DNA of 20,000 nucleotides from an uncultured virus (IMG/VR IMGVR_UViG_3300030673_000009) (Duplodnaviria > Heunggongvirae > Uroviricota > Caudoviricetes), in the IMG/VR virus record IMGVR_UViG_3300030673_000009. The stretch is one strand, 5' to 3'. Positions 4,371-20,000 of the stretch are shown piece by piece. Every line of letters begins with the position of its first letter. Position 1 is the first letter of the stretch. The position numbers were made by a program, and so were the translations under genes. The notes under the pieces were generated by a model that saw only the letters and a program-made list of their open reading frames with translations, searched no databases and was not told the DNA's origin.

Positions 4371-4855
4371 CAGTACCCCGGGTAGTACTCGGGATAGAAC
4401 GACGGGTACTCGCTCGGGTCGTAGTCGCCGAAGTTCTGACGGCCTGCGAGGTAGTTGTCCATGAAGCCCAGGCCGAACTTCAGCGGCTTGATCGACTCAT
4501 CCCACTGCTGGTCGAACAGCGCCCCAGAGAACGTCGGGGAGGCCATCGCCTGCTCCTGCTTGTACTGGTCCCGCAGGCTGACCGCAGCCGCCTCGAACTT
4601 GGACTGCAGCTCCGAGACGCCCACGGACACGCCGTCGGCGCTGACGGACACCTCACGGGCGTAGTGGGCCGCGATGATCTCGCAGCACACCGCCGCGTTC
4701 AGGGTGTTCGAGCCGTACAGCGGAGCCCACTTGCCGATGACGAAGGCGATCTCCTGATCGCTCAGCAGCGGCCGCGTGGAGTCCGTGTCACCGCACAGGA
4801 ACCGGACCTCGTCCTTGTCGGACGCGGCCGGGTCGCCTGAGTAGGTGAAGGTCAT
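4370..4855 (-). CDS. Putative head-to-tail adaptor, 161 aa
   Basis: Start revised to ATG 4855 (ATGA overlap). MTFTYSGDPAASDKDEVRFLCGDTD...LLSDQEI is a typical adaptor N-terminus. Confidence 0.78.
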   Translation of the reverse strand: MTFTYSGDPAASDKDEVRFLCGDTDSTRPLLSDQEIAFVIGKWAPLYGSNTLNAAVCCEIIAAHYAREVSVSADGVSVGVSELQSKFEAAAVSLRDQYKQEQAMASPTFSGALFDQQWDESIKPLKFGLGFMDNYLAGRQNFGDYDPSEYPSFYPEYYPGY

Positions 4856-5202
4856 CGGCCCGCCTTCAGGAAGTCCCCGCCCACCGGCATGAAGTGGCCC
4901 TTCGCCCGCTTGAACGCAGGCTTGCCCCGCAGCACCTTGCCCTTCGGGGTCATCAGCACCAGGCGCCGGGCCGTCGGGGTGTACGCACTCTTGGCCATCA
5001 CCGGCTTGGGGATCCGCGGGGCCTTCGCCCCCGGCACGCCAGGAGCCCGGCCGCCCGTCGGCGTCAGGCGACCAGCCTTGGGCGCGGCGATCTTCGGGGC
5101 AGCTGCCTTCGGCAGAGCCATCACCGGCTTGGGGATGGACGGCTTCGTCACGAAGCGCGACATCGTCTTGGGCGGAGCCATCACACCCGGCAGCCCCGGC
5201 AT
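4852..5202 (-). CDS. Highly basic Lys/Pro/Ala-rich protein, 116 aa, unknown function
   Basis: Fills the gap between coupled genes. Many K/R and only one acidic residue; IPKPVMA occurs twice. Confidence 0.7.
   Translation of the reverse strand: MPGLPGVMAPPKTMSRFVTKPSIPKPVMALPKAAAPKIAAPKAGRLTPTGGRAPGVPGAKAPRIPKPVMAKSAYTPTARRLVLMTPKGKVLRGKPAFKRAKGHFMPVGGDFLKAGR
4994..5136. repeat. 20-bp exact direct repeat (4994-5013 and 5117-5136) within the basic protein gene
   Basis: gccatcaccggcttggggat occurs twice, within the codons for IPKPVMA on the minus strand. Confidence 0.85.
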
Positions 5203-5204
5203 GG

Positions 5205-6542
5205 CTAGTAGTACCTGGCGTCAGTGCTCTTGCGACCCGCCCGGAACGACCCACCCAGGGCCAGGGCCCCACCGGTCACCGCCGCCGTCGTGCGCACCGG
5301 ATGAGCGGACACCGCCGCCCCACCCTGCCACAGCGGACCGGTGGTGAAGTTGTGCAGCGCGTACGACGGCTTCGGGGCCGCCGGATCACGCGTGGCAACG
5401 ATCGGGGTCTTGTACGTCAGCTTCCGCTTGCCGCTCGAGGACAGGCCCACCTCGGCCTGACGCGCTCGAGCACCGCCGATGCCCGGAGCCCGCACCAGCG
5501 AGCCCACCTTCGGCAGGCGAGCCTTGCCGACCGGCACCAGCTGGCCGGCACGCTTCTTCTTCGCACGGTGCATGGCGTACAGAGCCGCGCCGCCAGCCAC
5601 CGTGCCACCGACAGCAGCACCGATCAGGGCACCACGACGGATCTGCCGGGGAGAGGCAGAGGACCTCAGGTTCTCGTTGATGCGCAGCGCACCAGCCCGC
5701 AGCTCATCCGGCGACTGACGAGGAGCACGAGGAGCGCGAGTCCTCGGCGGGTTCGGGTTCAGGTGCAGGCTCTCGGGCACCACGGCCTTCTTGCGGGTCC
5801 GAGGCTTGCGCGGGGCAGCCGGAGCCGCCACCGGGGTCACCGGGGCCTTGCGGCGCACCGGCTTCTTCGTCGCCTGCGTCTGCCGGTCATAGGCATCCAT
5901 CACCGGCTTGTGCTCGGCCACCACCTTGTCCCGGTGATCGATCGCGGCCTGCGTCGCCTTCGCCTGACGCGCCAGCTCCGCCTCCATGCCCGCGAGATCC
6001 CTCGGCAGCTTCCGGGCTGCCTTGGACAGCGTGTACGCCTTCGCAGCAGGCATCACCACCGGGGCATACCGCTGCTTCGGCTTGTCAGAGTGCATCGCCG
6101 CAATGCCGCCAGCGCCCACAGCACCACCAGCGGCACCCACGCCCGCCCACACGTTCCGCAGCCGCTTGGCCTCGCCCACGCCACGAGTGGTCATCGAGTC
6201 CACCCGGGCATCCATGTCATTGGCATCGCGGATCGCCGCCGAGCGAGGGCCCTTGCCCGCCGCTGTCGCGTTCGCCCGCATCGCACCGGCACGACGGCCA
6301 GCCCGGCCGGCAGTGTCCAGGTAGTCCTTCACCCCGCCGGTGCCGAACACCTCACTGGCCACCCGCTTGATCGCCTTCGGGTGCGAGCCGATCCGAATCT
6401 CATTGCCCGCCGCATCCACGTCCGTCATCGACGCCGCGGACCGGTAGTTGCGGGCCAGGCTCGACACGTACCGCTGGCCCAGCTTGCGGGCCTCCAGCAG
6501 GCGGCCCTTGGCAACCTCATCGGAGTAGACGAAGTGACTCAC
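5205..6542 (-). CDS. Basic three-module protein, 445 aa (putative capsid-internal polyprotein)
   Basis: Start revised to GTG 6542 with GGAGG 7 nt upstream (MSHFVYSDEVAKG). Three Arg/Lys-rich segments each end in a Gly/Ala hydrophobic stretch. Confidence 0.75.
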   Translation of the reverse strand: MSHFVYSDEVAKGRLLEARKLGQRYVSSLARNYRSAASMTDVDAAGNEIRIGSHPKAIKRVASEVFGTGGVKDYLDTAGRAGRRAGAMRANATAAGKGPRSAAIRDANDMDARVDSMTTRGVGEAKRLRNVWAGVGAAGGAVGAGGIAAMHSDKPKQRYAPVVMPAAKAYTLSKAARKLPRDLAGMEAELARQAKATQAAIDHRDKVVAEHKPVMDAYDRQTQATKKPVRRKAPVTPVAAPAAPRKPRTRKKAVVPESLHLNPNPPRTRAPRAPRQSPDELRAGALRINENLRSSASPRQIRRGALIGAAVGGTVAGGAALYAMHRAKKKRAGQLVPVGKARLPKVGSLVRAPGIGGARARQAEVGLSSSGKRKLTYKTPIVATRDPAAPKPSYALHNFTTGPLWQGGAAVSAHPVRTTAAVTGGALALGGSFRAGRKSTDARYY

Positions 6543-6544
6543 GA

Positions 6545-6787
6545 CTAGACCTCCACAACGTCGAGGTACCCGCTCCTCACCCACGACTCCACGCGAGTCC
6601 ATGAGTTGGCCTCAGGGACCACATCCCCGATCTTGAACTTCTTAGCACCGATCTTGATCGGCTTGCGAGCGATGTACGTCACCCCGTCCGTCGGCCCGGG
6701 AGCGGCTGCAGCCTCAACCGGCTGCTTCGGCTTCCGGGTCCTCGCACGAGGACGCACCTGCTCCGAAGGAATGGTCTCCAGGTCCAT
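6545..6787 (-). CDS. Small capsid-region protein, 80 aa
   Basis: ATG 6787 lies 2 nt after the upstream stop (MDLETIPSE...YIARKPIKIGAKKFKIGDVVPEA...VRSGYL). The longer 217-aa call overlaps the FN3 gene out of frame. Confidence 0.7.
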   Translation of the reverse strand: MDLETIPSEQVRPRARTRKPKQPVEAAAAPGPTDGVTYIARKPIKIGAKKFKIGDVVPEANSWTRVESWVRSGYLDVVEV

Positions 6788-6789
6788 GA

Positions 6790-7575
6790 CTACGCCGGAG
6801 TCACGTTGACGGCCGTGGACGCCGCGCCATTGCCCGCGATGTTCACCGCACGCAGCTGGATGCTCACCTGCACGCCGTTCGTCAGGCCCGTGACCACCAG
6901 AGGCGAGCCCGTGCAGGCAGGGACCTTGGAAGTCCACGCGCCCGCGCCCACCTTGTACTGGTACTCGCTGATCGGCGCCCCGCCATCGTTCGAGGGGGCG
7001 TTGAACGCGATGCTCGCGGACGTGTTGCCAGGAGTGGCCACAAGAGCAAGCGGCGCAGACGAGGTCGTTCGCGGCGTAGCAACGGTCGCACTCGAGACCA
7101 CACCCTCCCCGAACGCGTTCACGCTGCGCAGCTCGAACGAGTACGCCTGGCCATTGACCAGGCCCGTGAACACCTGGCCGTTCGTCACGCTCGCCCACTC
7201 GCCGCCATCGATGCGCCCCTGCGTGCTCGTGGCACCACCAGCAGCCGTGAACGCCAGCGTCAGCTGCGCGTTGCCCGGGGTCACGCTGATCCCCGTCGGG
7301 GCAGCAGGAGCATCCTGCAGCTCCTCCTGCTCCAGGAAGTCCCGCAGCACCACCGCGCCGAGCGGGGTCACCGTGGGGTGCCCCGCCGGCGTACGGCGAT
7401 GGAACGGGTCCGGAGTGGCGTACAGGACGCCCTTGGACAGCAGGGCGTTCAGGGCGTTCGTCCTCGCCAGCTCCGTCACATGCGCGACGTCCAGACGATC
7501 ACCCTTCGCGTAGGAGTGACCCCGAAGGGTCACCGCCCTACCCGCCTTGATGTCCGTGGGAACCCGGCCGGCCAT
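6790..7575 (-). CDS. Putative capsid decoration protein with two FN3 domains, 261 aa
   Basis: Two FN3 repeats (APAAPTGISVTPGN...GLVNGQAYSFELRSVN and SSAPLALVATPGN...GLTNGVQVSIQLRAVN); immediately follows the capsid gene. Confidence 0.75.
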   Translation of the reverse strand: MAGRVPTDIKAGRAVTLRGHSYAKGDRLDVAHVTELARTNALNALLSKGVLYATPDPFHRRTPAGHPTVTPLGAVVLRDFLEQEELQDAPAAPTGISVTPGNAQLTLAFTAAGGATSTQGRIDGGEWASVTNGQVFTGLVNGQAYSFELRSVNAFGEGVVSSATVATPRTTSSAPLALVATPGNTSASIAFNAPSNDGGAPISEYQYKVGAGAWTSKVPACTGSPLVVTGLTNGVQVSIQLRAVNIAGNGAASTAVNVTPA

Positions 7576-7576: not shown

Positions 7577-8557
7577 TCAGGCCACCGCGTCCTTGACGAA
7601 CACGCCCATGTCCGGGCACACGACCTTCATGTCGTAGGTCATCTCGGCCTCGACACGATCCGACGCGATGTGCTCCATGCGGAACCGCTTGATCTTGATG
7701 CCCTCGGAGTTGCCGCCGAGGTAGCCGTTCCACGTGAAGGTGTAGCCCGCCGACGGCGTCATGAGCGAGGGGCTCGCCGGCGCGTACGCCAGCAGGGCCG
7801 ACTTGCTGCTCGTCATGAAGTCGTACGTCGCACCCGCATCCTGTTCGGCCGCATCCGGGATCTGCGGGGTGTCCGCGATCGTCGCGTACGAGGTGTAGAG
7901 CTGGTCGATCCCGAACAGAGTCGCGATCAGGTCCTCGGAGACGATGCCCTTCTGGGTGTACTTGATGCGGTCGATGATGTCCGGGTGCTGCTTGAGGGCG
8001 TTCATGACCTCGGCACCGAGCACCATCTTGTTGGGCTTGAAGCCCGTCGCCCGGCGGTAGTCCAGGATCCAGCCGGCCACATCGCCGATCGGGTCCGAGC
8101 CGCCATCGCTCCACTTCGTGAAGTCCGTGGCGCCGGTGTAGTGCACGTCCCACGCGCCCTCGACGAAGAACCGTGCGTTCCAGTCCAGGTCACGCTTGAG
8201 GAGCATCTGGTTGGTGATGAACTCCGTTGCGTCGCGGTCCAGGTTGAAGTTGGAGTCCGCGTTGCTCCGCAGCTGGTCGTCGACGTCCTTGTGGACGGCG
8301 TAGACATGCGCGAAGTACTGGTCCGTGGTGACGTTCCAGCCCACGCCCGGCGACTCGGTCGAAGGGGCGCGGCGCTTGACGTCGGTACGGCGCCAGTCGC
8401 TCTTGGAGTACTTCCAGTACAGGTCCGACTGCTTCTTCACCGGGCACTTCGGGAAGACCTTGTCGGCGATGTATGCGTCCGAGGACTGCATCCATGCGAC
8501 GCTGACATTCGTCAGCGGCACATTGACGTGCAGGTCAGACTGGCTCGGGCTTGGCAT
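7577..8557 (-). CDS. Major capsid protein (lambda gpE-like family), 326 aa
   Basis: DLHVNVPLTNVSVAW...IADKVFP.CPVKKQSDLY...PNKMVLG.EV.NALKQHP pattern. AAGGAG RBS; follows scaffold and cement genes. Confidence 0.92.
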   Translation of the reverse strand: MPSPSQSDLHVNVPLTNVSVAWMQSSDAYIADKVFPKCPVKKQSDLYWKYSKSDWRRTDVKRRAPSTESPGVGWNVTTDQYFAHVYAVHKDVDDQLRSNADSNFNLDRDATEFITNQMLLKRDLDWNARFFVEGAWDVHYTGATDFTKWSDGGSDPIGDVAGWILDYRRATGFKPNKMVLGAEVMNALKQHPDIIDRIKYTQKGIVSEDLIATLFGIDQLYTSYATIADTPQIPDAAEQDAGATYDFMTSSKSALLAYAPASPSLMTPSAGYTFTWNGYLGGNSEGIKIKRFRMEHIASDRVEAEMTYDMKVVCPDMGVFVKDAVA

Positions 8558-8578: not shown

Positions 8579-8986
8579 TCAGGCCAGCAGGACGCTGATG
8601 AGTTCGCCGGCACCGCCGCCGGTGATGGCGGTCCCTGCCAGGGCCTTGCCGGAGACCCACTTGATGGCCTTGCCGGTGGTGTCCTGAGGGCTGATGGGGT
8701 CGCCCGCGGCGACTGTGGCTCCGGCCACCACGAACACGATGCCACGAATGGCGATCGTGGCCGCCTGGCCAGCGACCTGGGGCTTGGACTGGCAGACCCC
8801 GATGACCGGACCCTCGTCGGCGTCCGCGAGGCCCACAGTGGACTCCCCGGTCACCTTCACGAAGCGGTACTGGGCCTTGCCGTCGTTCGGGTTCGCCGAA
8901 CCTGGCAGGCCGGGAACACCGGTGTAGCCGGCAAGGCTCGCATCTGCGGCCAGCGAGACGGACCGGACGCCTTCCTCGAATGCCAT
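8579..8986 (-). CDS. Capsid cement/decoration protein (DUF2190-like), 135 aa
   Basis: YRFVKV...IGV...AGQAATIAIRGIVFVVAGATVAAGDPI...GKA...G.A...GELISVLL beta-rich pattern; directly upstream of the capsid gene. Confidence 0.8.
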   Translation of the reverse strand: MAFEEGVRSVSLAADASLAGYTGVPGLPGSANPNDGKAQYRFVKVTGESTVGLADADEGPVIGVCQSKPQVAGQAATIAIRGIVFVVAGATVAAGDPISPQDTTGKAIKWVSGKALAGTAITGGGAGELISVLLA

Positions 8987-8988: not shown

Positions 8989-10077
8989 TCAGATCCCCTT
9001 CTCAGAGATGTAGGCGTCGTAGGCCGCGGGATTGGCCTCGAACAGGGCGACGGTCGCCTGGGCGTGGGTCAGGTCGGACTTGCCGACCAGATCGTCCGCG
9101 TAGGCGTCCACAGCGTCGATGACGCTGGAGTTGGAGGACTCCCCGACGTAGCCGAGCTCGTTGTAGAGCGCGTCGCCGACGGAGTTGAAGAGCTCGTCGA
9201 TGACATCGAGCTGGTCCTCGTCGAGGACCTCCGCCATCGCCTTGAGGATCGGGCCGAGCACCTCGGGGCTGACCGGGAGGTTGTACGTCGCGGCCTTGGA
9301 GACGAACTCCTGGGTGATGCGGATCTCCCGCTCGCTATCGGCGTAGGCAAGGGCCTCGCGGGCCTCCGCCTTCGCGACCTCGACCTCACCCATCGCCTTG
9401 GCGATGATCTCCTCGCGGTCACGCTCGGTGACTGCCTTCGAGAGCTGCTCGAGCACGGTGTCTCCCAGTGACTTGTGGGTGTTGTGGCGGTGCACGGCGT
9501 ACGCGCTTCCGCCAGCGGCTGTGGTCACGGCCGCGGCCCCGCCGGCATCACGAGCGATCCGGCCCTTGTTGGCCTTGCGACCCTCGCCCTTGAACTTCAC
9601 GTCGCGCATCGACGTGCGGCGATCGCCGCGGAAGGCGATGTCGCCGGCGCCGGAGTCGGGCGCGTAGTAGTCGAGGGGGTTCTTGAGCTTGCGAGCGCCC
9701 TTGAACCCGACGTTCTTCATCTTGCCGGTGCCCCGGAAGGCCACCTGGCGCGGCGCCACGGCATCGAGAAGGCCAAGACCGGCCTTGCCGACCTCGTCGC
9801 CGTCTTCGCCGTCATCGTCATCCTCGACTGCATCCTCGACGAAGACGTACTCGTTTCCATCCTCGTCGTACACGACATCGCCGTGCTCGAGGGTGTCCAC
9901 GTCCACCGCTTCGCCCGTCTCTTCGTAAACTGCCAGATCCGGCATGGATCCCTCCAGTGGTATGTCGCCTCCAGCAGACTTGGAGAAGGCGATGAGTGAA
10001 TGCTGGTTCGCTGCGCGGTCGACTACGGAGACCTCGTCGATCTCGAGGTCGAACAGCTTCTTCACCGGCTTACTCAT
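8989..10077 (-). CDS. Scaffold-like protein with N-terminal protease-type EVSVVDRAAN strand and an internal basic insert, 362 aa
   Basis: Acidic helical C-terminal half; position between protease and capsid genes; GGGAG RBS; nine xxK[AS] motifs. Confidence 0.75.
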   Translation of the reverse strand: MSKPVKKLFDLEIDEVSVVDRAANQHSLIAFSKSAGGDIPLEGSMPDLAVYEETGEAVDVDTLEHGDVVYDEDGNEYVFVEDAVEDDDDGEDGDEVGKAGLGLLDAVAPRQVAFRGTGKMKNVGFKGARKLKNPLDYYAPDSGAGDIAFRGDRRTSMRDVKFKGEGRKANKGRIARDAGGAAAVTTAAGGSAYAVHRHNTHKSLGDTVLEQLSKAVTERDREEIIAKAMGEVEVAKAEAREALAYADSEREIRITQEFVSKAATYNLPVSPEVLGPILKAMAEVLDEDQLDVIDELFNSVGDALYNELGYVGESSNSSVIDAVDAYADDLVGKSDLTHAQATVALFEANPAAYDAYISEKGI

Positions 10078-10134: not shown

Positions 10135-10866
10135 TCAGTTCCACGGCTTGTTCCGCTCGCTGATGCCATGGCGGTAGGCCGCTGCCGAGGCGATGGCCGA
10201 CAAGGCAGCAGCGCCTCCGTAGAGGGCGCCCTTGCGGCCGACACCGATCCGGGTGATGCCCTTGGCCTGCTTCATCCGCTCCGCCTGGGCGACCGGATCC
10301 TTCAGGGCCCGCTTCTTGCCCGCCGCGGCCACCTGCGCAGTCCGATCGATCTGCTTGCCGGTGTCCCGGTCGTGATGGGTGATCACCGTGTTCCGGCGAG
10401 CGCCCTCCCCGGCCACCAGGGCCGACCCGGCCAGCACGCCGGAGTACATCCCGATCCGACGCTGGCGATCGGCCTCCGCGTCGAAGCGGCGCTTGGCCAC
10501 GAACTCCAGGTTCGTCCCATGGTCGGACTTCACGGCCGCCTCCTTCTTCTGGTCGATCTGCGCGTTAATGCTCCGCCGGCCCATGACGTCGCCAGCCAGC
10601 TCCATGCCATGGAAGCCCACCCAGCCGGCCGCGCCGGCGAGCGCCGCCTTCTTCCCGGCACTCTTGGGAAGTCTCGGAACCCTACTGGCCACCGCAGCGC
10701 CGGCGTTCTTCACCGGCTTGGGCACCACCCTGCCCACCACATGACGCGTGCCATCCGGCAGCGAGGTGTACAAGGCGTGACCGCCACCGATGATGGCAAC
10801 CGTGTTCAAGGTGCGAGCCGTCTCCAGCTCAGCCCGGGACTGGCCCTTGCGCGGCTTCTCGCTCAC
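10135..10866 (-). CDS. Basic protein with Gly/Ala-rich hydrophobic segments, 243 aa
   Basis: Start revised to GTG 10866 (GTGA overlap, GGGGAG RBS; MSEKPRKG). Two halves are separated by AVKS...VAKR. Confidence 0.72.
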   Translation of the reverse strand: MSEKPRKGQSRAELETARTLNTVAIIGGGHALYTSLPDGTRHVVGRVVPKPVKNAGAAVASRVPRLPKSAGKKAALAGAAGWVGFHGMELAGDVMGRRSINAQIDQKKEAAVKSDHGTNLEFVAKRRFDAEADRQRRIGMYSGVLAGSALVAGEGARRNTVITHHDRDTGKQIDRTAQVAAAGKKRALKDPVAQAERMKQAKGITRIGVGRKGALYGGAAALSAIASAAAYRHGISERNKPWN

Positions 10867-11129
10867 ATCGTGCTCCCCACGCCCAAGGGCGAGTACAGCA
10901 TGCCCCGGCCCTGAGCCACGGCGTTCGCGTTGCGGGACATCCGGCGCTTCTGCCACGGCATGATCCGATGGCCCGTGCCACGGGAGATGCCGAACGCCAT
11001 CATCCGAGAGCCTGCGTACATGTCCAGGGGATCAACCACCCGAGCAGAGAACGGGGCCACGGCCCATGGAGGGATCGGCAGGGTCTCCGCCCGGCCGATG
11101 TCCAGCGCCTTGCCGATCATCTCCATCAC
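10863..11129 (-). CDS. Hypothetical protein, ~88 aa
   Basis: GTG 11129 overlaps the protease stop (ATG 11126 is an alternative start). MMEMIGKALDIG...; exactly fills the gap between coupled genes. Confidence 0.6.
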   Translation of the reverse strand: MMEMIGKALDIGRAETLPIPPWAVAPFSARVVDPLDMYAGSRMMAFGISRGTGHRIMPWQKRRMSRNANAVAQGRGMLYSPLGVGSTM

Positions 11130-11902
11130 ATGCCCACCAGCTCGGACTCGTCGACCTCGACCCGCTTGCCGCGGCCGTGGATGGAGAAGCCCGTGACCAG
11201 ACCCTTCTTGACCTTGTCCCACGTGCGGTCGTCCTCGACCTTGTAGCCCACCCACCAGCCGACCGGGGTGTCCGAGGGAAGGCCCATCTTCTCGATCTTC
11301 TCCGGGGTGATGACGAACGACTCGATCATGTTCGAGGCGTGGAATGGATTCTCCCCGTCGCGCTGATGCTGGTCCCCGCCCTTGCGGGACTTCACCACGT
11401 AGTCGTAGGCGGCCTTCTCCAGGTCCTCCGGAGTCATGTAGTCGCCCTGCCGGTCGATCACCGGCATCCCGTCGATCTCCACCACCGAGGCGTAGCCGAA
11501 CACCTGGCGCTTCTCGGCGTCCACCTTGGAAAACTCGCCCATCCAGATGATGCTCGAGGTGTCCGACTTGGATGCGGCGTCATCGGTGATGACCTTCTCG
11601 GTGTACTTCGGCCGCTTCTTCTTGTCCAGCTCGTGATGCCCGGCCGCTGCCGCGCTCACTGCCACCGGAGCAGCCACGGCCGCCACCAGACGGCCACGGC
11701 GGGTGCGCATCGCCCGGGAGACCAGGGAGTGGGTGGCCAGCTCGGAGACCTCCGGGCCCATCTTCACCACGCGCTCTGGGCCGTACAGGAACTCCCACGC
11801 GTCCTGAGGATCGACCGAGTCGCCCAGGAGCGTCTTGCACAGCTGCACGAAGCCCGGATCGACCTCGATGAGGGCGTTCACGGCTGTCCGCGAGTCAACC
11901 AC
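11126..11902 (-). CDS. Prohead maturation serine protease, XkdF-like (peptidase S78_2 type), with N-terminal extension, 258 aa
   Basis: EKRQVFGYASV...DRQGD...DLEKAAYDY...DQH...IESF...PVGWWVGYKVEDD.TW.KVKKG..TGFSIHG, with putative catalytic His and Ser. AGGAGG RBS. Confidence 0.88.
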   Translation of the reverse strand: MVDSRTAVNALIEVDPGFVQLCKTLLGDSVDPQDAWEFLYGPERVVKMGPEVSELATHSLVSRAMRTRRGRLVAAVAAPVAVSAAAAGHHELDKKKRPKYTEKVITDDAASKSDTSSIIWMGEFSKVDAEKRQVFGYASVVEIDGMPVIDRQGDYMTPEDLEKAAYDYVVKSRKGGDQHQRDGENPFHASNMIESFVITPEKIEKMGLPSDTPVGWWVGYKVEDDRTWDKVKKGLVTGFSIHGRGKRVEVDESELVGM

Positions 11903-11919: not shown

Positions 11920-14424
11920 TCAGTCATCAGTATCCACGAACCGAAGGGCATATTCATTCACGATGAAGTCCGGAGTGTGCATGAGGACGTCCTGGCCGAT
12001 GCCGTGCTCGGCAGCCACCTCGTAGAAGGACCGGAACTTCGGCTCGCCGTAGATGACGGCCAAGGCCTTCCGTGCGCCCTTCCAGTCGGTCTTGTCACCC
12101 GTCACCATCGTGCGAGCCACCAGAGGACTGGACGGGGCGATGACCACCGGGATGTTCTTCTGCTCACCCGTGTCGAAGTCGATCCTGCGCTCGACGATCG
12201 GTGAGGCATTCGCCAGGTCGTCCACGTGGATGGACTTGCCGTTGAACAGGAACATGCCGTCCTCACCGGCGTCCTTGCTGGCGTCGACCATGTCCGAGAA
12301 GAAGTTCACGGCCATCGCGTAGGCCTCATCGACGCCAAGATTGCCAGTGTTCCTGATGACATGACGCTCGTTCGACGGCGTGCTCTTGGCCTCCCCACGG
12401 GCCTTGCCCGCCATCCGCAACAGCGCATCGGTCACCGAGGTGGTGCTGGCGTCCTTCAGCCGCAGCGTGATCTGCTGCTGCTCAGCCCACGGGTCACCCG
12501 CATCATTGAACGTGCTGAACCCGGCACCGCTGATGAAGGCAGCCTGAATGGCCGACTCCTTCGTCTCCTCGGGAGCGCTCTGGACCGCCTTCACCCGCTT
12601 GCGGGCATCGATCCTCGTCTTGCGTCCATGCGCCAGCCGGTCCTTGCGAGCACCGGCCATCCGGGCCTCCCGCTTGGAGGGCTTGCTCGAGGACAGGATC
12701 TGCGCCGTGGAAGCCTGCTCGTCGGCCTCCATCATCTGCCGCAGCACCGCGTAGTCCCGATCTGTCAGCACTGGGGCCTTCGGCGCCTTCCGCTGAGCCT
12801 GCTGGGTGCGGAACCGGTTCTTGGCCGCCTTCCGCTTCCGACGACCCTCACGGGCGTCGAACCCACTCGTCGGCTGGACACGATCCGGCTGGTCGTCGAA
12901 GCGGCCACGGGAGTCCCGGCGCACCTCGTTCTCGTCGAACTCGTCAGCCTTCGTCAAAGGGTCGTGCGGGAGATCCGGCGTCACCTTCGCGCTCGGCTTG
13001 TTCGCGTACGGCCGGTCATCCCACACCCGCGGGAACGCCCCGTCATTGTCCAGCTCCAGATGCAGCACCGGCATCGGAACGGCCAGGCCACGACGACTGC
13101 CCGGGTTCGCCGACGGCGCCCACCGCAGGAACTTGTCCTGCTGGTAGTCGTAGCCGTCGGAGTTCGTGGCGGCATTCTTCAGCGTGTTCAGACGGGCATT
13201 GCCAGCCATCGTGATCTCGGGATCACGCGGTCCGCCCTCGCTCGAGGCGAACGTGCCGTCAATGCTCAGCATGACGTACTCACTCAGCATCAAGCGCCGG
13301 TCCGGGTCCTGGTTGAGCCCCCTCAGCAGGCTCTCCATGTCATCCGGAGTCAGCCACGTCACCTTCGACGCCTTCTTGGAGTCGACGTTGCCCATGTAGA
13401 ACGACTCGCTCTTGAGCATGTGATCAGCCTGGTCCCGGGTGACCAGCGCCACCCGGTGGTCATCGAACTTGTGGCCCATGCCGCTGCCCTCGAACGGCTT
13501 GGCCAAGTCATCCTCGGGAGCATCGTCAGCACCGACTGAGCGCAGCTTGCGCTGGCCCTTGGCCTCCGCGATGCGCTGGGACCTGCGGGCGTTCAGCCGA
13601 TCCGCACGCTTGCTCCCCAGCTGCTCGGTGACCGGCTCCTGCTCGGCCTGCTGTGAGGCACCGAACTGGTGCCGGATCGCCGCAGCCAGATCCGCCAGGC
13701 CACCGGGCGCCTGCCGCTGGGAGCGCTGGGCCTTCTGCCGCCGGACGTTCACCGCGGCCTTGCGCTTGCGCCGGGCCTCCCGAGCCTCGAAGGCGCTGGA
13801 GGGCGTACCGCGCTCCGGAGCATGGGCGAACCGGCCGCGACCATCCCGCGGATGCTCGTCCGGGTCGAACTCCTCATCCATCGACTTGGAGACCATCGGC
13901 ATCGGGGTGCTCTCCCGACGGGCCACATGCGAGGCGAACTCCATCAGGACGCGATCACCGATGTCCGCACGCACGGTCGGGGCAAGCGCAGGCTTCCCCA
14001 GATCACCGTAGGCCTTCCCGAGCCTGTCCGCCGGCACCCCGTGCACCGAGGCCACCCGCTCGATCGCCGTCGGCCACGGCATCCCCGTGTTCGTCAGGGA
14101 CAGCAGCAGGCGCTCCGTGGCGTCCACGGCCTGCTGGTGCAGGTTCGAGGCCAGCAACTGCCCGTAGCGGCCCGAAGCGGCCCCCAGGACAGGCCGGGTG
14201 GCCTCACCCAGCGCTTTCGCCACCGGCTCGAGGTCCACATCGTCAAGCACCTGGTGCACCCGTGCCACATCCACCAGGGTGTGACGGCTCAACCGCTCCA
14301 GCGCCGACGAAGCGATGCCGTGGTACCCGAGTACCGCCGTACCCACGCCCTGCTCGAGATCGGAGTCGTCCACCAGCGCCAGCACCGCCCGCGACTGGTC
14401 GGCGTCCGCCCACCACCGGGTCAC
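11920..14424 (-). CDS. Large head-region protein with two tandem RDxxGRF-headed modules, 834 aa
   Basis: GTGA-coupled to the AAA gene, high GC3 frame, internal duplication visible at protein level. Confidence 0.8.
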   Translation of the reverse strand: MTRWWADADQSRAVLALVDDSDLEQGVGTAVLGYHGIASSALERLSRHTLVDVARVHQVLDDVDLEPVAKALGEATRPVLGAASGRYGQLLASNLHQQAVDATERLLLSLTNTGMPWPTAIERVASVHGVPADRLGKAYGDLGKPALAPTVRADIGDRVLMEFASHVARRESTPMPMVSKSMDEEFDPDEHPRDGRGRFAHAPERGTPSSAFEAREARRKRKAAVNVRRQKAQRSQRQAPGGLADLAAAIRHQFGASQQAEQEPVTEQLGSKRADRLNARRSQRIAEAKGQRKLRSVGADDAPEDDLAKPFEGSGMGHKFDDHRVALVTRDQADHMLKSESFYMGNVDSKKASKVTWLTPDDMESLLRGLNQDPDRRLMLSEYVMLSIDGTFASSEGGPRDPEITMAGNARLNTLKNAATNSDGYDYQQDKFLRWAPSANPGSRRGLAVPMPVLHLELDNDGAFPRVWDDRPYANKPSAKVTPDLPHDPLTKADEFDENEVRRDSRGRFDDQPDRVQPTSGFDAREGRRKRKAAKNRFRTQQAQRKAPKAPVLTDRDYAVLRQMMEADEQASTAQILSSSKPSKREARMAGARKDRLAHGRKTRIDARKRVKAVQSAPEETKESAIQAAFISGAGFSTFNDAGDPWAEQQQITLRLKDASTTSVTDALLRMAGKARGEAKSTPSNERHVIRNTGNLGVDEAYAMAVNFFSDMVDASKDAGEDGMFLFNGKSIHVDDLANASPIVERRIDFDTGEQKNIPVVIAPSSPLVARTMVTGDKTDWKGARKALAVIYGEPKFRSFYEVAAEHGIGQDVLMHTPDFIVNEYALRFVDTDD

Positions 14425-15346: not shown

Positions 15347-18300
15347 CTATCGCAGCCTGAACCCCTGCCCGGTCAGGACCCGCCCCGTCCTGTGCGGGAC
15401 GAACGGCAGGCCTTGCGCCGCCCGCCGCGCCACTGCCTTGGACAGCGGGTGGGACTTGGACAGGACCTCGACTCGGACCGGATTCGCCGCCTTCACGATC
15501 CGGTCGTCCCCTTTTGGGACTGCCTCCCCAGCATCGAAGGCATTGACCAGCCTCGTGGTCATCGCCAGCGACCATGCACGCTGCAGTGCCGCTGCCTCCT
15601 CCTCAGCCGGGAAGTTGCGGATCAGGCCGGGGATGTCGGCATCCTTCGGCAGGTTCACCATGCCGTAGTCGTCCTGCGTCAACGACCCGTACTCGAAGGC
15701 CGTCATCATGGCCTTCTGGTTCACCACGTCGAAGACGTTGTCGTTCGTGGTGTCCGGGTCCATCGCCCTCTTGGCATCGGCCACCGCCTTGAGCGCCTTG
15801 ACACGCTCGACCACCTGGTTGTTCATCTCCACCAGCGAGCGGTACTGGGTGCCGTCATCGGAGGTCACCAGCTCGCGGGCCATGTCCGCGATCGGCTTCG
15901 GCTCCTGCTTGTAGGCGTCCAGCACCTGGGCGCCGGTCTGGATCCGGTCGATGCCCGGGTACGCCTGCGGCACCGGAAGGTCCGTGGCCTTCGCCCCGTG
16001 GAACGGGTCAGAGCCCGACACGAACGGGCCGCCCGCGAGGATCAGGCCATCAGCGACATCAGCCGCGGTATCCGACACCCACTGCATCGCTGCAGCGCCC
16101 TTATGGCCGGCGATCTCGTTCTCCGCCTCGATCCAGTCCTTCTCGTTGCCGTTCGTGGTATTGATCGCCTGCTTGAACGCGCCCTGCACCGCCTTCGGGT
16201 CACCCAGTGCTCGAGCGGCCAGCAGCGCCTTGCCGCGGTCGGAGAAGATCTCGTTCATCGTCTTAAGGTTCTGGCTCATCAGCCAGCCCGCGAAGTTCAC
16301 CGGGGACGCCTGGGCAGCCTCATCGAACGACAGGCCCTCCGTCGCCTCGTCATTGACGTTGATCGCCGCCAGCTCGTTCTTCAGCTGCGTCTGCTGGGCC
16401 ATCACCGTCTCATGCAGCTGCGCCCGCTTCTTCTCCATCCGGGAGTTCAGCGCCACCGGGGCGGCCGGAGGGACGTCCTTGGTATCGGTCGGGGCCGCAG
16501 CACCCTCAGCGGCCGGCTTCGGGGTCTCCGGAGCCTCCTCCTTCGGAGCCGAGGCCTGACCCGTACGCGGCTTGTTCTGCAGCTGCGGGGTGCCACGGTC
16601 GTAGAACCCGGCCTTGATCCCCTGAGCCCGCAGCGCACCGGGCTTGGTGTAGCCGCGATCCTCGGTAAACGTGCGCCCCTTGGGCATCTCCCCGCGCAGC
16701 GACGGGCCGCCCTCGTTCACGAACGTGTTCAGGTCACGCACGCCCACCCGGCGGATGAAGTACGGGAACTGCTGCTGCAGCGTCTGCAGCGCCACCGCGT
16801 ACCCCTCGCCGTTCAGGCGCAGCTTGTTCGCCTTCGTCGAGGCCACCCGCTGGATCTCATCCTCGAGGTTCTCCTCGTAGGCCCGGGCCGCCACGCCACG
16901 CGGAGGCTTCTCCGCGGTGTAGCCCATCTCCGCGAGGACCTTCGCCGACGCGGCTGCCTCATCCTCGTTCGTGATGCGCGAGGCGTCCTGGCGGGCACGG
17001 TCCACCCGCTCGCTGTACGCCGCGAGCGCATCATCGCCCTTCAGGCCGGCGTCCCTGATCCCCGCCCGAATCCTCGACTTCTCCTGCGGGGAGACGTCCA
17101 CCAGGTACTCCCCGGAGTTCGCCACCGCATCCAGGATCTTCAGGTACCGGTCGTCCATGTCGCGGGCCTTGTCGGAGTTCCCGCGGGCACCGCGGAAGTC
17201 CGGGGCCATCTCCAGGGTGAACACCCCACTCGGGCTGATGACCTGCACGTTGCGGGCACCCATCGTCACCGCCGCGTAGATGTCCTCGCCCGTCAGGCCA
17301 CCGGACATGCGGGTGCGGGCGTACTGGCCACCCCGCAGCGATCCGAGGTTCTTCAGGTCGAACGGCAGGTAGTGGTCGTCGGTGAAGCCCACCGACTGGC
17401 TGACGATCTTGCCCTGGGCGTTGATGAGCACGCCCTGGCTGGGAAGGATCTGGCCGGACAGCTCGCTCAGCCGCGCCACCATCGGGTCCCGGGGCAGGGT
17501 CCGCGCCAGCTCGGCGCTGGCCACGTCACCACGCACCTGCATCGCCAGGGCGTCACCGGACAGGCCCTTCTTGCGGGCAGCGATGTCGAAGCCCTCCACC
17601 GGGGTGTCCGCCTGCGTGGGAGTGATCCCCGCACGCTCCATCTGGTCGATCTGCTTGAACTGGCCCACCAGCTGCTCGTCAGGAGTCGTCTCCGTGCCCC
17701 GGTAGCGGTAGGCGGCACGCTGGGCGTACGGGCCGAGCACCTGCTCCGCCTGCGGGCCCACCGAGCCGATGAACGCCGCCGTCTGCCCCAGCTTGTCCTG
17801 CCCGGTCACCTGCGACAGGACGTTGCCGCCGGACTGCAGCTGGCCGAAGAAGCGGGTCAGCTTCGACTGGTCGGGGTTCGAGCCCATCTGCAGGTTCGAC
17901 TGCAGCTCCTTCAGCCGCGCCGGGTCCACCGTCGACATCGACGCCAGGGCCGCACCGCCGCGAGCACCCAGCAGGTTGTACGTGCCGACCTTGTTGCGCA
18001 CGTCCTCGCCGGCACCGGCCGCCGGAGCCACGCTCATGGCGAAGACGGTCTCGTTCGCCGCCACCTTGACCGGAACCGTCTCGTTGCCGAAGTCGGACAG
18101 CCTGGCCGTGCGGGACACGATGTCGCCATTGTCCGTGGCGATCATCATCGTCACGTCGACCTTGTTCGGATCCACCCCGCGCAGGGCGTCCTTGAACTCC
18201 CCAGCCACGCGGATGGTCTGCTCGTGCTGGCTCTGCACTCGCTCGAGCCTCTCCCGCTCCGACGACTTCTTGTCATCGGTGAGGATGCTCGCATCGGTCT

Positions 18301-18769
18301 TCAGGGAGTTGCGCACCGACGGAGCCACCTGCTTGCTGTCAGCAGGCTTGTCGATGCCCTTGAGGTCCGTGCGGGAGGTGCTGGAGATCTTCCGGGCGAA
18401 CTGGCCCTTCGCATCGCGCTCCACGTCCACCTGGCGCTGCGTGCCGTTCATGTTGAACCACTCGAAGTCCTTGGACACCGTCTGGGCGCTGACCACGTAC
18501 TGCTCCAGCCCCGCCAGATACTCCGCGGCCTTCTGGATCTCGTCGCTGGGGTACTGGCCGCCGACGATCATCTCCACGTACGAGCGCCCCAGCTGCCGCT
18601 TGGCGACCTGGATGCGGTCGAGGTTCACCAGCGAGTACAGGCCGGTGATGTCCTTCTCGACGATCTTGGCGTAGTCCGTCAGGTAGTCGTAGACCACCGC
18701 ATCGATGAAGGCGCAGCCAGCAGCCTCGTCTGCCTTCATGACATCGACGAAGACATCCATGACGCTCAT
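15347..18769 (-). CDS. Large head-region protein, ~1140 aa, with RDxxGQF motif and a degenerate JAB/MPN-like segment
   Basis: Long high-GC3 ORF; ATG 18769 with AGGGAG RBS 5 nt upstream. Function inferred (putative internal or ejected protein). Confidence 0.8.
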   Translation of the reverse strand: MSVMDVFVDVMKADEAAGCAFIDAVVYDYLTDYAKIVEKDITGLYSLVNLDRIQVAKRQLGRSYVEMIVGGQYPSDEIQKAAEYLAGLEQYVVSAQTVSKDFEWFNMNGTQRQVDVERDAKGQFARKISSTSRTDLKGIDKPADSKQVAPSVRNSLKTDASILTDDKKSSERERLERVQSQHEQTIRVAGEFKDALRGVDPNKVDVTMMIATDNGDIVSRTARLSDFGNETVPVKVAANETVFAMSVAPAAGAGEDVRNKVGTYNLLGARGGAALASMSTVDPARLKELQSNLQMGSNPDQSKLTRFFGQLQSGGNVLSQVTGQDKLGQTAAFIGSVGPQAEQVLGPYAQRAAYRYRGTETTPDEQLVGQFKQIDQMERAGITPTQADTPVEGFDIAARKKGLSGDALAMQVRGDVASAELARTLPRDPMVARLSELSGQILPSQGVLINAQGKIVSQSVGFTDDHYLPFDLKNLGSLRGGQYARTRMSGGLTGEDIYAAVTMGARNVQVISPSGVFTLEMAPDFRGARGNSDKARDMDDRYLKILDAVANSGEYLVDVSPQEKSRIRAGIRDAGLKGDDALAAYSERVDRARQDASRITNEDEAAASAKVLAEMGYTAEKPPRGVAARAYEENLEDEIQRVASTKANKLRLNGEGYAVALQTLQQQFPYFIRRVGVRDLNTFVNEGGPSLRGEMPKGRTFTEDRGYTKPGALRAQGIKAGFYDRGTPQLQNKPRTGQASAPKEEAPETPKPAAEGAAAPTDTKDVPPAAPVALNSRMEKKRAQLHETVMAQQTQLKNELAAINVNDEATEGLSFDEAAQASPVNFAGWLMSQNLKTMNEIFSDRGKALLAARALGDPKAVQGAFKQAINTTNGNEKDWIEAENEIAGHKGAAAMQWVSDTAADVADGLILAGGPFVSGSDPFHGAKATDLPVPQAYPGIDRIQTGAQVLDAYKQEPKPIADMARELVTSDDGTQYRSLVEMNNQVVERVKALKAVADAKRAMDPDTTNDNVFDVVNQKAMMTAFEYGSLTQDDYGMVNLPKDADIPGLIRNFPAEEEAAALQRAWSLAMTTRLVNAFDAGEAVPKGDDRIVKAANPVRVEVLSKSHPLSKAVARRAAQGLPFVPHRTGRVLTGQGFRLR
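15476..15518 (-). other. Candidate -1 frameshift cassette: C CCA AAA + 6-nt spacer + 8-bp stem-loop
   Basis: Heptamer at 15518-15512 is in the correct phase of the upstream ORF. Stem arms GACCGGAT (15505-15498) and ATCCGGTC (15483-15476). The -1 frame is open through to the AAA domain. Confidence 0.7.
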
Positions 18770-18778
18770 GAGCACTCC

Positions 18779-20000
18779 CTAGCTGCGTGTGCCCGGCATG
18801 GAGCCGTGGCGTGTGCTGATCTTCCCACTCGGCGAGCGGGTCAGGCCTCCAACACGAGGCCTCGGTGTGGTCAGTCCCGCGCCGATCCTGCGGGTGTAGT
18901 TGATCTTCGGGATGCGCAGCAGAGCCTTGCCCACGCCCTTGCGGTCCAGTTCGGCCCTGACCTCCCGGTACCGCCGCACGGAGTTGTCGTCTAGCCCGCG
19001 ATAGGCCTCCGACAGGCCTGACGCCCGCAGATCCGCACGCAACCGGGTCGCGCCGTAACGGGTGTTCGACGCGGTTCCCGCCCGCTCGTAGGCGGAGTAC
19101 CTGCGGTTCTTCGGTCGCATCGCCTGATTCGCCCGGGCCTCGTCCGCCAGCCCCTTCGTCGGATTCGAGATGGTCCGCACCACCGCCGACAGCGGCTTGC
19201 GGCGCCTCACATGCGCCAGCTCGTGGTTCTTCATGTCATCGGCCAGACCGCGGACCCCCATCGGACTGCGCTTGGGGTGGAAGACGATCGCATCCGCATG
19301 CCGCTGCGACTGGCCCGGCTTCAACCCCGCCGGGAAGTACCCGCCGACCAGGCTGCCGGGATCCTTGTCGATGAACCGCGACACCTCGTGGCCGCCGACC
19401 ATGTGCTTGACCGGCTTGCGCTGGAACGTCGTACCGGCCGTCAACTCGCTCGGACTGTCCACCATCGCCCTCACGGCACGCAGTCCCTCGCTCACCTTGC
19501 GGGAGATCCGCTTGTTCTTCGCGCTCACCCCACCCAGCGACGCATGCGACGGAGCATTGCGCAGCAGCCTCTTCGGCACGCTCGACGCCGACCGGAAGAC
19601 AGCACCCTCACCGGGGATGTTCACCAACGACTTGGCGACCCGGTCCCGGCCCAGCTCGCCGACAGCGGCCCGCTGGTAGGCCTTCGCCTTGATCTTGTTC
19701 ATCCGGCGCTGCATGCCACGAGCGCTGCGGACGTTGTTGGACGCCTCGATGCCGGCCATCAGGCCACCGGCCATGTACGCCGTCGTCGCCAGCCGGTTGC
19801 CGGGCTTCACGCCGGACTTCGCGCCCATGATCCCGGCAAGGCCAGCCACCGTGCCGTTGCCGGTGCCCATGCCTACGTCGACGTTGCGACGGTGCTTGAG
19901 GTCCCGGTAGCCGCGCTCGGCATCCGTGGAGATGTTCTGGGAGTGCGTGCGCAGGAAGCGGTCCTTCTTGACCACCTCGGGGTTCTTCAGCCTCTGCTGC
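18779..20000 (-). CDS. Basic modular protein containing a HExxH zincin-like motif (5' end outside window)
   Basis: The frame stays open to the window edge (QQRLKNPEVVKKDRF...), so 19975 is probably not the true start. Contains KNHELAHV...DEARAN. Confidence 0.75.
   Translation of the reverse strand, partial: QQRLKNPEVVKKDRFLRTHSQNISTDAERGYRDLKHRRNVDVGMGTGNGTVAGLAGIMGAKSGVKPGNRLATTAYMAGGLMAGIEASNNVRSARGMQRRMNKIKAKAYQRAAVGELGRDRVAKSLVNIPGEGAVFRSASSVPKRLLRNAPSHASLGGVSAKNKRISRKVSEGLRAVRAMVDSPSELTAGTTFQRKPVKHMVGGHEVSRFIDKDPGSLVGGYFPAGLKPGQSQRHADAIVFHPKRSPMGVRGLADDMKNHELAHVRRRKPLSAVVRTISNPTKGLADEARANQAMRPKNRRYSAYERAGTASNTRYGATRLRADLRASGLSEAYRGLDDNSVRRYREVRAELDRKGVGKALLRIPKINYTRRIGAGLTTPRPRVGGLTRSPSGKISTRHGSMPGTRS

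Follow-up and report, generated by a model that had tools for sequence, protein, structure and literature searches.

A predicted lysine-directed head protease and a conserved, probable cargo tag in the head module of an uncultured siphovirus-type phage

Do the head genes of some uncultured tailed phages encode precursors that are cut inside the prohead at one short lysine motif, and, if so, by which protease and into what? The question is raised by a stretch of 20,000 nucleotides from an uncultured member of the Caudoviricetes (IMG/VR record IMGVR_UViG_3300030673_000009), the whole of which is here called the window. A first-pass annotation, made from its sequence alone, had noticed a hydrophobic-x-Lys motif at apparent module boundaries in about nine head genes, and had proposed that an XkdF-like protease cleaves after this Lys, with roughly 10 kb of genes encoding packaged precursors that are cut into many effectors for delivery with the DNA. 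All 32 motifs that it listed are indeed found in the translations of the minus-strand genes. The reading that we favour, with moderate confidence and on the strength of sequence comparison, is one in which cleavage after Lys by the XkdF protease degrades the scaffold, trims off leader regions and releases three cut-resistant modules, each headed by a conserved peptide (hereafter the tag) and probably carried in the capsid.

As we envisage it, this serine protease would act inside the prohead after the Lys of [V/I]-[S/A/G/T]-K, usually where A or S follows. Its cuts would degrade the scaffold, which offers 6-9 sites, and would remove the helical leaders of two large cargo proteins of 1142 and 834 amino acids (aa), namely residues 1-102 and 1-180, along with the protease's own residues 1-47. 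Three cargo modules would be freed, each starting 9-17 residues ahead of a tag that it retains and each resisting further cutting, and these tag-headed modules would probably travel in the capsid. The many effectors expected from about 10 kb of precursors are not evident: there are three modules with a tag, and none belongs to a recognised enzyme family.

Lysine sites and a conserved tag at module borders

The strongest marker of real module borders in the locus is the tag, which the first-pass annotation had missed. It is part of a composite element in which hydrophobic-x-Lys is followed, after 9-17 residues with aromatic and acidic members, by (H)PR-x3-G-[RKQ]-F or RD-x2-G-[RKQ]-F. The consensus of the tag itself is [FW]-x-E-x-(H)PR-x3-G-[RK]-F, and in the 834-aa protein an Arg/Lys-rich helix follows it. 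The window has three tag sites: K180 (VSK-S) and K492 (LTK-A) in the 834-aa protein and K102 (VSK-D) in the 1142-aa protein. Across the window and two distant uncultured relatives, G002 (68.6 kb, 44% GC) and G003 (17 kb, 63% GC), the element stands at the same three places in 9 of 9 cases, and no tag pattern was found elsewhere in the open reading frames (ORFs) of G002, G003 or the window with its extension (a longer contig described below).

Both cargo families preserve this arrangement. For the 1142-aa protein there are 121 homologues, about 1100-1200 aa long and all lacking a Pfam domain; the alignment took in 104 of them. Position 102 is Lys in 96 of 100 sequences, always as hydrophobic-x-Lys, with A (58), D (19) or G (8) as the most frequent next residue; the tag residues R120, G124 and F126 are at least 90% conserved, and a further site near the C-terminus, K1095 (IVK-A), keeps the motif in 70 of 98. 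Nearly all of the 29 homologues of the 834-aa protein carry tags at about residues 190 and 500. Here, the Lys before the first tag (near 179/180) is at least 90% conserved, and R193, G197, F199, R503, G507 and F509 are invariant. Hydrophobic-x-Lys occurs in the 21 residues before the tag for 85 of 89 tags in the 1142-aa family and for 43 of 60 in the 834-aa family, as against 17% of random windows, and 58 of the latter 60 have some Lys upstream. At P3 the preference is for V/I, at P2 for S/A and at P1' for A. A profile alignment (hhalign) of the two families covers the site and tag region alone (E 1.7e-4), and we therefore do not claim that their leaders are homologous.

AlphaFold2 (AF2) models place these sites between folded units. 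For the 1142-aa protein (mean predicted local distance difference test, pLDDT, 84.6) the model has a helical leader (residues 5-97), disorder at 100-118 that takes in K102, and a large core (130-720), after which come a disordered linker, a helical C-domain (776-1081) and renewed disorder at 1091-1104 around K1095. In the model of the 834-aa protein (mean pLDDT 76), a helical N-domain (1-172, pLDDT 91-97) gives way to disorder at 176-186 (K180); the tag sits at a small hairpin, and a basic helix comes before module A (318-458), which is alpha/beta. The C-terminal half repeats the pattern, with disorder at 487-498 (K492) ahead of the second tag and its helix, and then module B (622-828), again alpha/beta. 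K180, K492, K102 and K1095 are all predicted at pLDDT below 50 between confident domains, and in these models all four lie in exposed linkers exactly at domain borders.

The same joints are where modules change partners. Among 28 members of the 834-aa family the N-domains form one cluster (28/28), module A falls into four clusters (12, 7, 3 and 2 members) and 5 singletons, module B into five clusters (6, 6, 3, 2 and 2 members) and 8 singletons, and the types of A and B combine independently. Pairwise homology stops at the tags (200/200, 512/518 and 509/527) or just past the basic tract. The best explanation of these sequence patterns is that modules are exchanged between phages by recombination at the tags. 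The expectation that variable modules would be swapped exactly at the lysine motifs was borne out to the extent that modules are exchanged and homology breaks at the tag element, and not at every motif.

What the modules do is a separate matter. With several independent modules per polypeptide, the cargo genes lie beside virion genes, the modules being confident AF2 domains joined by disordered linkers and mosaic in content. Pfam gave no family for the 834-aa protein at E<=10 or for the 1142-aa protein at E<=0.01, recognised effector and LPD domains included, and neither these two nor the 629-aa head protein encoded ahead of them matches MuF (PF04233, Phage_Mu_F, including its C-terminal H.NCRC motif). 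A PDB sequence search with the 1142-aa protein gave nothing at E<=1, the ESM Atlas no usable match to it, and tblastn against cultured phages no match. Foldseek against PDB reached at best E >=0.08 for the 834-aa and >=0.3 for the 1142-aa model, models this large being poor tests of single domains. In the VIA wide comparison the leaders returned generic helical-bundle or hairpin rows alone (Z up to 8.2). Module A shows a weak likeness to the fold of ADP-ribosyltransferase toxins (6drh_B, Z 5.5; 6gn0_E, 5.4; 6aqk_A, 5.1; 6kly_A, 5.0; 3u0j_A, 4.6), a model-based resemblance that we take as a hint only.

Between the two cargo genes, in the window as in G002 and G003, lies a gene for an AAA+ ATPase with Pfam AAA and AAA_lid_6 matches. 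Its NCBIfam matches to EccA (6.5e-56), SpoVK (9.4e-54) and CbbX (1.2e-44) score 190, 182 and 153 bits against cut-offs of 467, 423 and 459, by which it is assigned as a member of the EccA/SpoVK/CbbX clade and not as an equivalog of any of them. Head-assembly blocks do not usually include an ATPase of this kind, which could act on the cargo. A longer ORF for it, overlapping the 1142-aa gene by 229 nucleotides, is probably an artefact, the later ATG fitting better.

Motif counts and the candidate protease

The placement of the motif departs strongly from chance. In the window the scaffold alone stands out, with 8 occurrences of [VILF]xK[AS] against 1.0 expected, a number that 0 of 1000 shuffles reach. 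The interiors of the three cargo modules contain 89 Lys, of which 6 are in hydrophobic-x-Lys against 19.95 expected, and 0 of 5000 shuffles are that low. The Lys of the flanking parts fit the motif almost without exception (4/4 in the 834-aa N-domain, 5/6 in the 1142-aa leader and 4/4 in its C-terminal tail).

The families behave likewise when counts are set against shuffled sequences. In 23 scaffold sequences hydrophobic-x-Lys is 2.78x expectation and [VI][SAGT]K 9.4x (131 observed, 14.0 expected), with a hydrophobic-x-Arg control of 1.06x; leaders and tails of the cargo proteins reach 2.5-2.7x and 5.1-10.7x for the two Lys patterns. The corresponding values are 0.52x and 0.18x (24 vs 134) for the interior of the 1142-aa family, 0.60x and 0.26x for module A and 0.56x and 0.53x for module B of the 834-aa family, where the controls give 0.85-1.0 (hydrophobic-x-Arg) and 0.96-1.23 (hydrophobic-x-Glu). 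For the other virion proteins they are 1.38x and 0.43x (capsid protein), 1.13x and 0.44x (decoration protein), 1.11x and 0.71x (portal), and 1.76x and 0.86x (tape measure).

The candidate enzyme, the window protease, matches PF14550 (Peptidase_S78_2) at E 2.5e-21 (76.4 bits, cut-off 24), residues 123-249 covering profile positions 4-126 of 126, and its GFSIHG stretch is invariant in the three sequences aligned. Its own leader of 47 residues is closed by a VVK site kept in 20 of 24 orthologues, and position 112 is occupied by Lys in 22 of the 24, with a fit to the motif in 18. A related domain occurs in phage Salgado of Arthrobacter (L001, 11592-12713), where gp18, annotated as 'RNA ligase', has a C-terminal XkdF-like domain with 29% identity to the window protease over 110 residues.

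One putative substrate is the scaffold. Among its 23 orthologues the motif is preserved at K33, K214, K227 and K333 in 22-23 sequences, at K279 in 17 and at K261 in 15, and every scaffold Lys retained in at least 15 of the 23 sequences (these six) is a hydrophobic-x-Lys-[A/S] site. The first of them ends a strongly conserved N-terminal motif, L.D..IDEVS.VDR.ANQH...[AF].K, which is kept in distant XkdF loci and in the cultured Roseobacter phage CRP-6 (L053, L058, L090-L094 and L225:9372-10187). That phage has the same type of protease (gp55, an XkdF protease) and of scaffold (gp54), and its scaffold holds 17 hydrophobic-x-Lys against 7.5 expected. We take the N-terminal motif to resemble the C-terminal strand found in proteases of the HK97 type, and it may serve as a docking element between scaffold and protease.

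Three smaller sets of sites complete the picture. In the 88-aa protein all 9 orthologues have Lys at the site and 7 of them hydrophobic-x-Lys, the G003 protein having a 117-aa extension ahead of it; in the 243/273-aa protein hydrophobic-x-Lys directly precedes the conserved RRFD.EADRQRR stretch in 6 of 8 orthologues. The VVK of the 629-aa protein is kept in 10 of 10, and its VAKSL/VGKAL tail motif, kept in G002 and G003, is duplicated in the window around an insert. That insert (about 230 residues) occurs in this lineage alone and has an HExxH in the form HELAH; a search for near-length homologues returned only itself, and it matches no family. As a processing enzyme the HELAH insert was rejected because the relatives lack it.

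Of the 32 listed sites, 17 retain the motif in 70% or more of the orthologues and 11 show weak conservation or none; the remaining four (three in a 465-aa gene, one in a 116-aa gene) have no orthologue for comparison. The 465-aa and 116-aa genes, which have no orthologue in G002, G003 or 23 close loci, also have motif counts at chance (4 vs 5.8 and 6 vs 3.6 expected), and the system of about nine genes first proposed contracts to the seven with conserved sites, those for the 629-aa, 1142-aa and 834-aa proteins, the protease, the 88-aa and 243/273-aa proteins and the scaffold.

The site also keeps company with the protease gene. Eighty IMG/VR loci were found with the protease alignment. In the 29 closest of these the tag invariably lies on the protease strand and upstream of the protease (29/29), it appears on the opposite strand twice across all 80, and 54 of 55 distinct tags have hydrophobic-x-Lys upstream. 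A DNA-pattern scan of IMG/VR for EHPR-x3-GRF gave at least 80 loci, with 42 distinct in-frame tags among the matches listed. Among these, the site precedes all 13 tags whose 12-kb locus contains an XkdF gene and 10 of the 29 for which none was detected, a count to be read with the proviso that a gene not found in a 12-kb locus does not mean that the phage lacks one; 4 of the 19 site-less tags lie at the very N-terminus of their protein. Cleavage after Lys by XkdF, as first suggested, thus gains indirect backing from a motif that is rich in the scaffold, avoided in the capsid protein and cargo interiors and placed in predicted disordered linkers, from module swaps at the joints, and from the contrast between 54/55 tag sites with XkdF and 10/29 with none seen.

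Several points weigh against this account, in addition to the proviso on undetected XkdF genes. First, the predicted enrichment of the motif in head genes over other genes failed when whole genes were counted: the loose motif [VILFM]xK[ASRDG] is in excess by about 1.6x both in head genes (47 vs 29.3 expected) and in tail genes (9 vs 5.8), and the figures for [VILF]xK are 65 vs 60.1 and 16 vs 12.2. Second, the tape measure is helical and itself reaches 1.76x, and part of the scaffold excess could therefore be helix periodicity. Third, the family sequences are related, so that pooled counts measure conservation and are not independent events. Fourth, some conserved motifs lie inside confident helices or the protease fold, and those at K59 (1142-aa protein), K70 (834-aa protein), and K126 and K163 (protease) may have a structural role instead of being cut. 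For the second tag in the 834-aa family, moreover, the residue two before the Lys is hydrophobic in only part of the sequences. Finally, the cargo proteins have no Pfam, NCBIfam or PHROG family and no confident PDB fold, which leaves 'effector' unproven as a name for them.

The first two of these points also favour a reading in which hydrophobic-x-Lys and the tag are structural features of linkers (helix caps, a small beta-hairpin, a basic helix), nothing is cut, the proteins act intact, and the features persist because recombination keeps using these joints. The exchange of modules at tags would need sequence conservation and no cleavage, and the portions of the polyvalent-protein study available to us treat processing through internal peptidase domains, with no shared site motif (PMC5512222). 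We regard this reading as unlikely. It leaves unexplained the 2- to 5-fold depletion of the motif in modules and capsid protein while the Arg and Glu controls stay near 1, and equally the 9.4x enrichment in the scaffold; two further difficulties, that the Lys travels with XkdF proteases and gives way to other residues in other lineages, and that the tags of stand-alone proteins sit at N-termini with no Lys, arise from the wider distribution of the tag.

The tag beyond the XkdF loci

A tag profile of 46 positions, built from 79 tags of the window and the loci and searched among 1.84 billion representatives, matched 3,672 clusters at E<=1e-3, of which 561 reached 1e-10 and 27 reached 1e-30. The best matches are giant polyvalent, MuF-fused or portal-fused proteins of 613-7334 aa with 3-22 tag copies, and 22 of the 28 best matches scanned have a Pfam family; the families are those usual in polyvalent proteins, among them ART-PolyVal, Kinase-PolyVal, InPase, MuF, Zeta_toxin, 2H and GNAT. 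Tag-bearing proteins among the matches listed in the DNA-pattern scan similarly include portal fusions, six MuF fusions, and ART-PolyVal, LPD3, NUDIX and 2H domains. In the MuF fusions (L111, L113, L114, L172, L176 and L177) the site and tag follow the C-terminal motif of MuF, at the genomic place that corresponds to that of the window proteins.

Some tag-bearing proteins were observed with no Lys site. In L106:4504-7767, L135:2045-4471 and L103:5149-7629, portal proteins (Phage_portal_3) are fused via the tag to a zeta-toxin or topoisomerase IB domain or to a module of unknown kind; they have no hydrophobic-x-Lys before the tag, and an XkdF gene was not found in those loci. In L146 (two ORFs, of 176 and 230 aa), L132 and L144, stand-alone proteins start with M-x(6-10) right before the tag, with no Lys; proteins with such an N-terminal tag range from 176-230 aa up to 692 and 1639 aa. 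From its position in these sequences, the tag of stand-alone proteins reads as a natural N-terminal label that has no upstream cut site.

In the 138 proteins with at least 3 tags among the top 150, use of the Lys site is bimodal, 40 having it at 80% or more of their own tags and 51 at 20% or fewer, and some of the Lys-less proteins conserve other residues there, such as F-S-(G)-W or L-x-L-A-W. In giant polyvalent proteins from other sources (P0152, P0153 and P0156) the residues conserved before the tag include [IV]-x-F-S-(G)-W, L-x-L-A-W and x-x-K-A-F. The sequences suggest that such alternatives are protease-specific variants of the cut site, and they are consistent with a cargo tag that stays constant and a cut site ahead of it that varies with the protease of the phage.

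The tag probably marks proteins for loading into the capsid or for retention there. We infer that the cargo would be packaged into the prohead and delivered with the DNA from the position of its genes and from the tag's company of MuF, portal and polyvalent proteins. More tentatively, HPR..GRF could be a general and undescribed label of capsid-carried proteins, thousands of them polyvalent, MuF-fused, portal-fused or stand-alone, with a cut site for the lineage's own protease before it (Lys for the XkdF type, other residues elsewhere) and with the EccA-like ATPase of this locus helping to load or unfold the tagged cargo; as a whole this wider proposal is speculative and we would not lean on it. 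The strings HPRxxxGRF, HPRDxxGRF, PRxxxGRF and HPRxxxGxF have no occurrence in the open-access papers listed, where EHPR and EHPRD gave unrelated matches, and no description of XkdF specificity or of the tag was found in the open-access literature searched. A tblastn search of the tag region against cultured phages gave no match at E<=10, the query being too short.

A second alternative grants that the sites are XkdF sites and holds that the 1142-aa and 834-aa proteins are assembly factors (an extra scaffold or core, or MuF-like portal partners) that are degraded and expelled, the tag being an element for protease docking or core assembly. Both genes do lie in the assembly block between portal and protease, neither product has a recognisable enzyme family, residues 81-140 of the 834-aa N-domain align weakly with residues 63-122 of the MuF-type ORF of L172, in the N-region outside its MuF domain (hhalign, E 2.1e-5, probability 77%), and the 1142-aa model draws weak 'minor capsid protein' rows in BFVD (E 1.4e-3 to 0.05). 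We nevertheless think it improbable that these proteins are consumed. Sites are avoided inside the modules, which must therefore survive the protease, unlike the scaffold; modules are swapped fast between close phages, a pattern typical for conflict proteins but atypical for core components of assembly; and the same tag elsewhere heads ADP-ribosyltransferase, kinase, zeta-toxin, topoisomerase IB and NUDIX domains.

Least probable of all, and in our judgement very much so, is that another enzyme, either a host trypsin-like protease or the zincin-like HExxH insert of the 629-aa protein, cuts these sites while XkdF processes the scaffold alone or nothing: the HELAH sequence is flanked by two of the motifs, and internal peptidase domains have been proposed to cut polyvalent proteins themselves (as given in the accessible part of PMC5512222), but the insert is absent from G002 and G003 and has no homologue while the sites are family-wide, the Lys motif tracks the XkdF gene over loci of 43%-70% GC, implying different hosts, and the scaffold, a classic substrate of prohead proteases, has the same motif.

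The head module and its known counterparts

The preferred reading, of an XkdF-type protease that processes scaffold and tagged cargo, is set in a compact gene block (Table 1). The window has a GC content of 67%, and every real gene is on the minus strand. In the order of transcription these encode the 629-aa protein (its C-terminal 406 residues), the 1142-aa protein, the AAA+ ATPase, the 834-aa protein and the XkdF-type protease; then the 88-aa protein, the 243/273-aa protein, the scaffold, a cement-like decoration protein and the major capsid protein; and lastly an fn3 protein, the 465-aa and 116-aa proteins, connector, neck and tail proteins, the major tail protein, chaperones and the start of the tape measure. 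The IMG/VR contig L017 is identical to the window and extends beyond it; it contains the full 629-aa gene and, just upstream of this, a Mu-type portal (PF06074, 6.9e-36). Given this portal and the gene content, the block is taken as the head-and-tail block of a siphovirus-type phage, and the window is best explained as the head module of an uncultured siphovirus of about 70 kb.

Its relatives are distant. Capsid protein identity to cultured phages (of Arthrobacter, Pseudomonas and Roseobacter) is at most 42%, and megablast of 4852-20000 against cultured phages gave no match. Gene order and similar gene sizes are kept in G002 and G003, and the position of the protease between the portal and the scaffold and capsid genes is kept in three lineages and the 23 close loci. 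The phage group with the same head module (L023-L051) ranges from 43% to 70% GC, and this module has therefore spread among hosts of very different base composition, with order, sites and tags kept. Pfam, PHROGs and NCBIfam give no match for the 629-aa, 1142-aa, 834-aa, 465-aa, 273-aa and 116-aa proteins. Three lineage-specific genes, for the fn3, 465-aa and 116-aa proteins, lie between the capsid and connector genes and are not in G002 or G003; the C-terminus of the major tail protein is also fn3, and the 465-aa and 116-aa proteins are basic and rich in Lys, Arg and Pro, with stretches that are mildly hydrophobic and rich in Gly and Ala.

Table 1. Features of the head module in the window, in order of transcription; sites, tags and borders within a protein are indexed under it.
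Feature	Position	Strand	Remarks
629-aa head protein	18779..20000	-	C-terminal 406 residues; gene follows the portal gene
629-aa motif VVK-K	19964-19975	-	
629-aa motif VAK-S	19628-19639	-	
629-aa insert	18935-19627	-	HELAH at 19211-19225
629-aa motif VGK-A	18923-18934	-	
1142-aa (or 1140-aa) cargo protein	15347..18775	-	
1142-aa leader	18470-18775	-	
1142-aa site VSK-D	18467-18478	-	
1142-aa tag	18395-18466	-	
1142-aa core	16616-18394	-	
1142-aa disordered linker	16451-16615	-	
1142-aa C-domain	15533-16450	-	
1142-aa site IVK-A	15488-15499	-	
1142-aa tail	15350-15490	-	
AAA+ ATPase, EccA/SpoVK/CbbX clade	14421-15335	-	likely start ATG at 15335
834-aa two-module cargo protein	11920..14424	-	
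834-aa N-domain	13894-14424	-	
834-aa site 1 VSK-S	13882-13893	-	
834-aa tag 1	13828-13884	-	
834-aa first basic tract	13714-13794	-	
834-aa module A	13051-13473	-	
834-aa site 2 LTK-A	12946-12957	-	
834-aa tag 2	12898-12948	-	
834-aa second basic tract	12787-12864	-	
834-aa module B	11941-12561	-	
XkdF-type prohead serine protease	11126..11902	-	
Protease leader	11762-11902	-	conserved
Protease site VVK-M	11759-11770	-	leader end
Protease site ASK-S	11564-11575	-	
Protease XkdF domain	11156-11536	-	
88-aa protein	10863..11129	-	
88-aa site IGK-A	11106-11117	-	just before the conserved part
243/273-aa protein	10135..10956	-	variable N-part
243/273-aa site VAK-R	10489-10500	-	
243/273-aa conserved C-domain	10138-10491	-	
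Scaffold	8989..10077	-	
Scaffold N-terminal motif	9979-10053	-	ends in FSK-S
Scaffold site FSK-S	9976-9987	-	
Scaffold further motifs	9781-9792, 9433-9444, 9394-9405, 9367-9378, 9292-9303, 9238-9249, 9076-9087	-	
Decoration/cement protein	8579-8986	-	Phage_cement_2; motif-depleted; context only
Major capsid protein	7577-8557	-	phrog_1005, 1.6e-85; motif-depleted; context only
Lineage-specific genes	4852-7575	-	fn3, 465-aa and 116-aa
fn3 protein	6790-7575	-	
465/445-aa and 116-aa proteins	4852..6602	-	basic, Gly/Ala/Pro-rich; not counted in the system

Processed head cargo is known in T4, phiKZ, SPN3US and P1. In T4 the head protease gp21 degrades the scaffold core and trims IPI-III and Alt, which are loaded into the prohead and injected with the DNA. 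The locus described here is predicted to resemble that system in having a head protease that acts at a short hydrophobic-x-charged motif, degrades the scaffold and trims loaded proteins. The two differ in the protease, which here is of the XkdF type (PF14550) and not S77; in the predicted P1 residue, Lys instead of Glu; in the conserved peptide, which here comes after the cut and would be kept by the cargo, the T4 signal (CTS) lying ahead of its cut and being removed; and in the cargo modules, which here are strung in polyproteins. Neither an S77 protease nor an N-terminal targeting peptide removed at hydrophobic-x-Glu, as in T4-type systems, was found here.

In HK97, gp4 (Peptidase_S78), of the sister Pfam family of XkdF, cuts gp5 after Lys103. 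The predicted cleavage after Lys is the likeness, and Peptidase_S78 is the source of the name of the XkdF family, Peptidase_S78_2. HK97 removes the delta domain of its capsid protein, whereas the capsid protein of the window has no such domain and is depleted in the motif, the predicted substrates being a separate scaffold and cargo proteins.

The giant phages of the phiKZ type cut at x-x-Glu. In these and SPN3US one prohead protease (gp175/gp245) processes many head proteins that are packaged and ejected, according to the portions of the two reports available to us (PMC10052503; PMC5694885). The cutting of many non-capsid head proteins at a short shared motif has a counterpart here that is predicted from the genes alone. 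Those phages are myoviruses of 240-280 kb with a T4-like protease, and the phage of the window, of the siphovirus type and about 70 kb in size, has a protease of another family, a motif with Lys and few cargo modules.

The closest parallels in cargo are the polyvalent proteins that phages and conjugative elements encode (Iyer et al. 2017) and the MuF polymorphic toxins (Jamet et al. 2017). These are described, in the accessible parts of the respective studies, as large multi-module proteins encoded beside virion genes, fast in shuffling, and predicted to be packaged and injected (PMC5512222; PMC5576092). The tag links the two sets in that it also stands between modules of ART-PolyVal, Kinase-PolyVal, LPD3, MuF and Zeta_toxin proteins; the two cargo proteins of the window differ in matching none of the Pfam domains of the class. 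The available text of PMC5512222 names no shared tag or protease-dependent site ('linker', 'HPR' and 'GRF' occur 0 times), and that of PMC5576092 no shared signal ('conserved motif', 'linker' and 'cleav' occur 0 times). For the processing and capsid loading of polyvalent and MuF-fused effectors, what has been proposed so far in these portions of the literature is self-cleavage by internal peptidase domains, with no shared signal. The tag with its protease-specific site, in comparison, predicts where modules start, which enzyme would release them and which residues that release would need, and the evidence assembled here amounts to a first prediction of what the XkdF head proteases, a widespread family, recognise. 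If this is true, the combination of tag and site would let the injected proteins of uncultured phages be listed from sequence alone.

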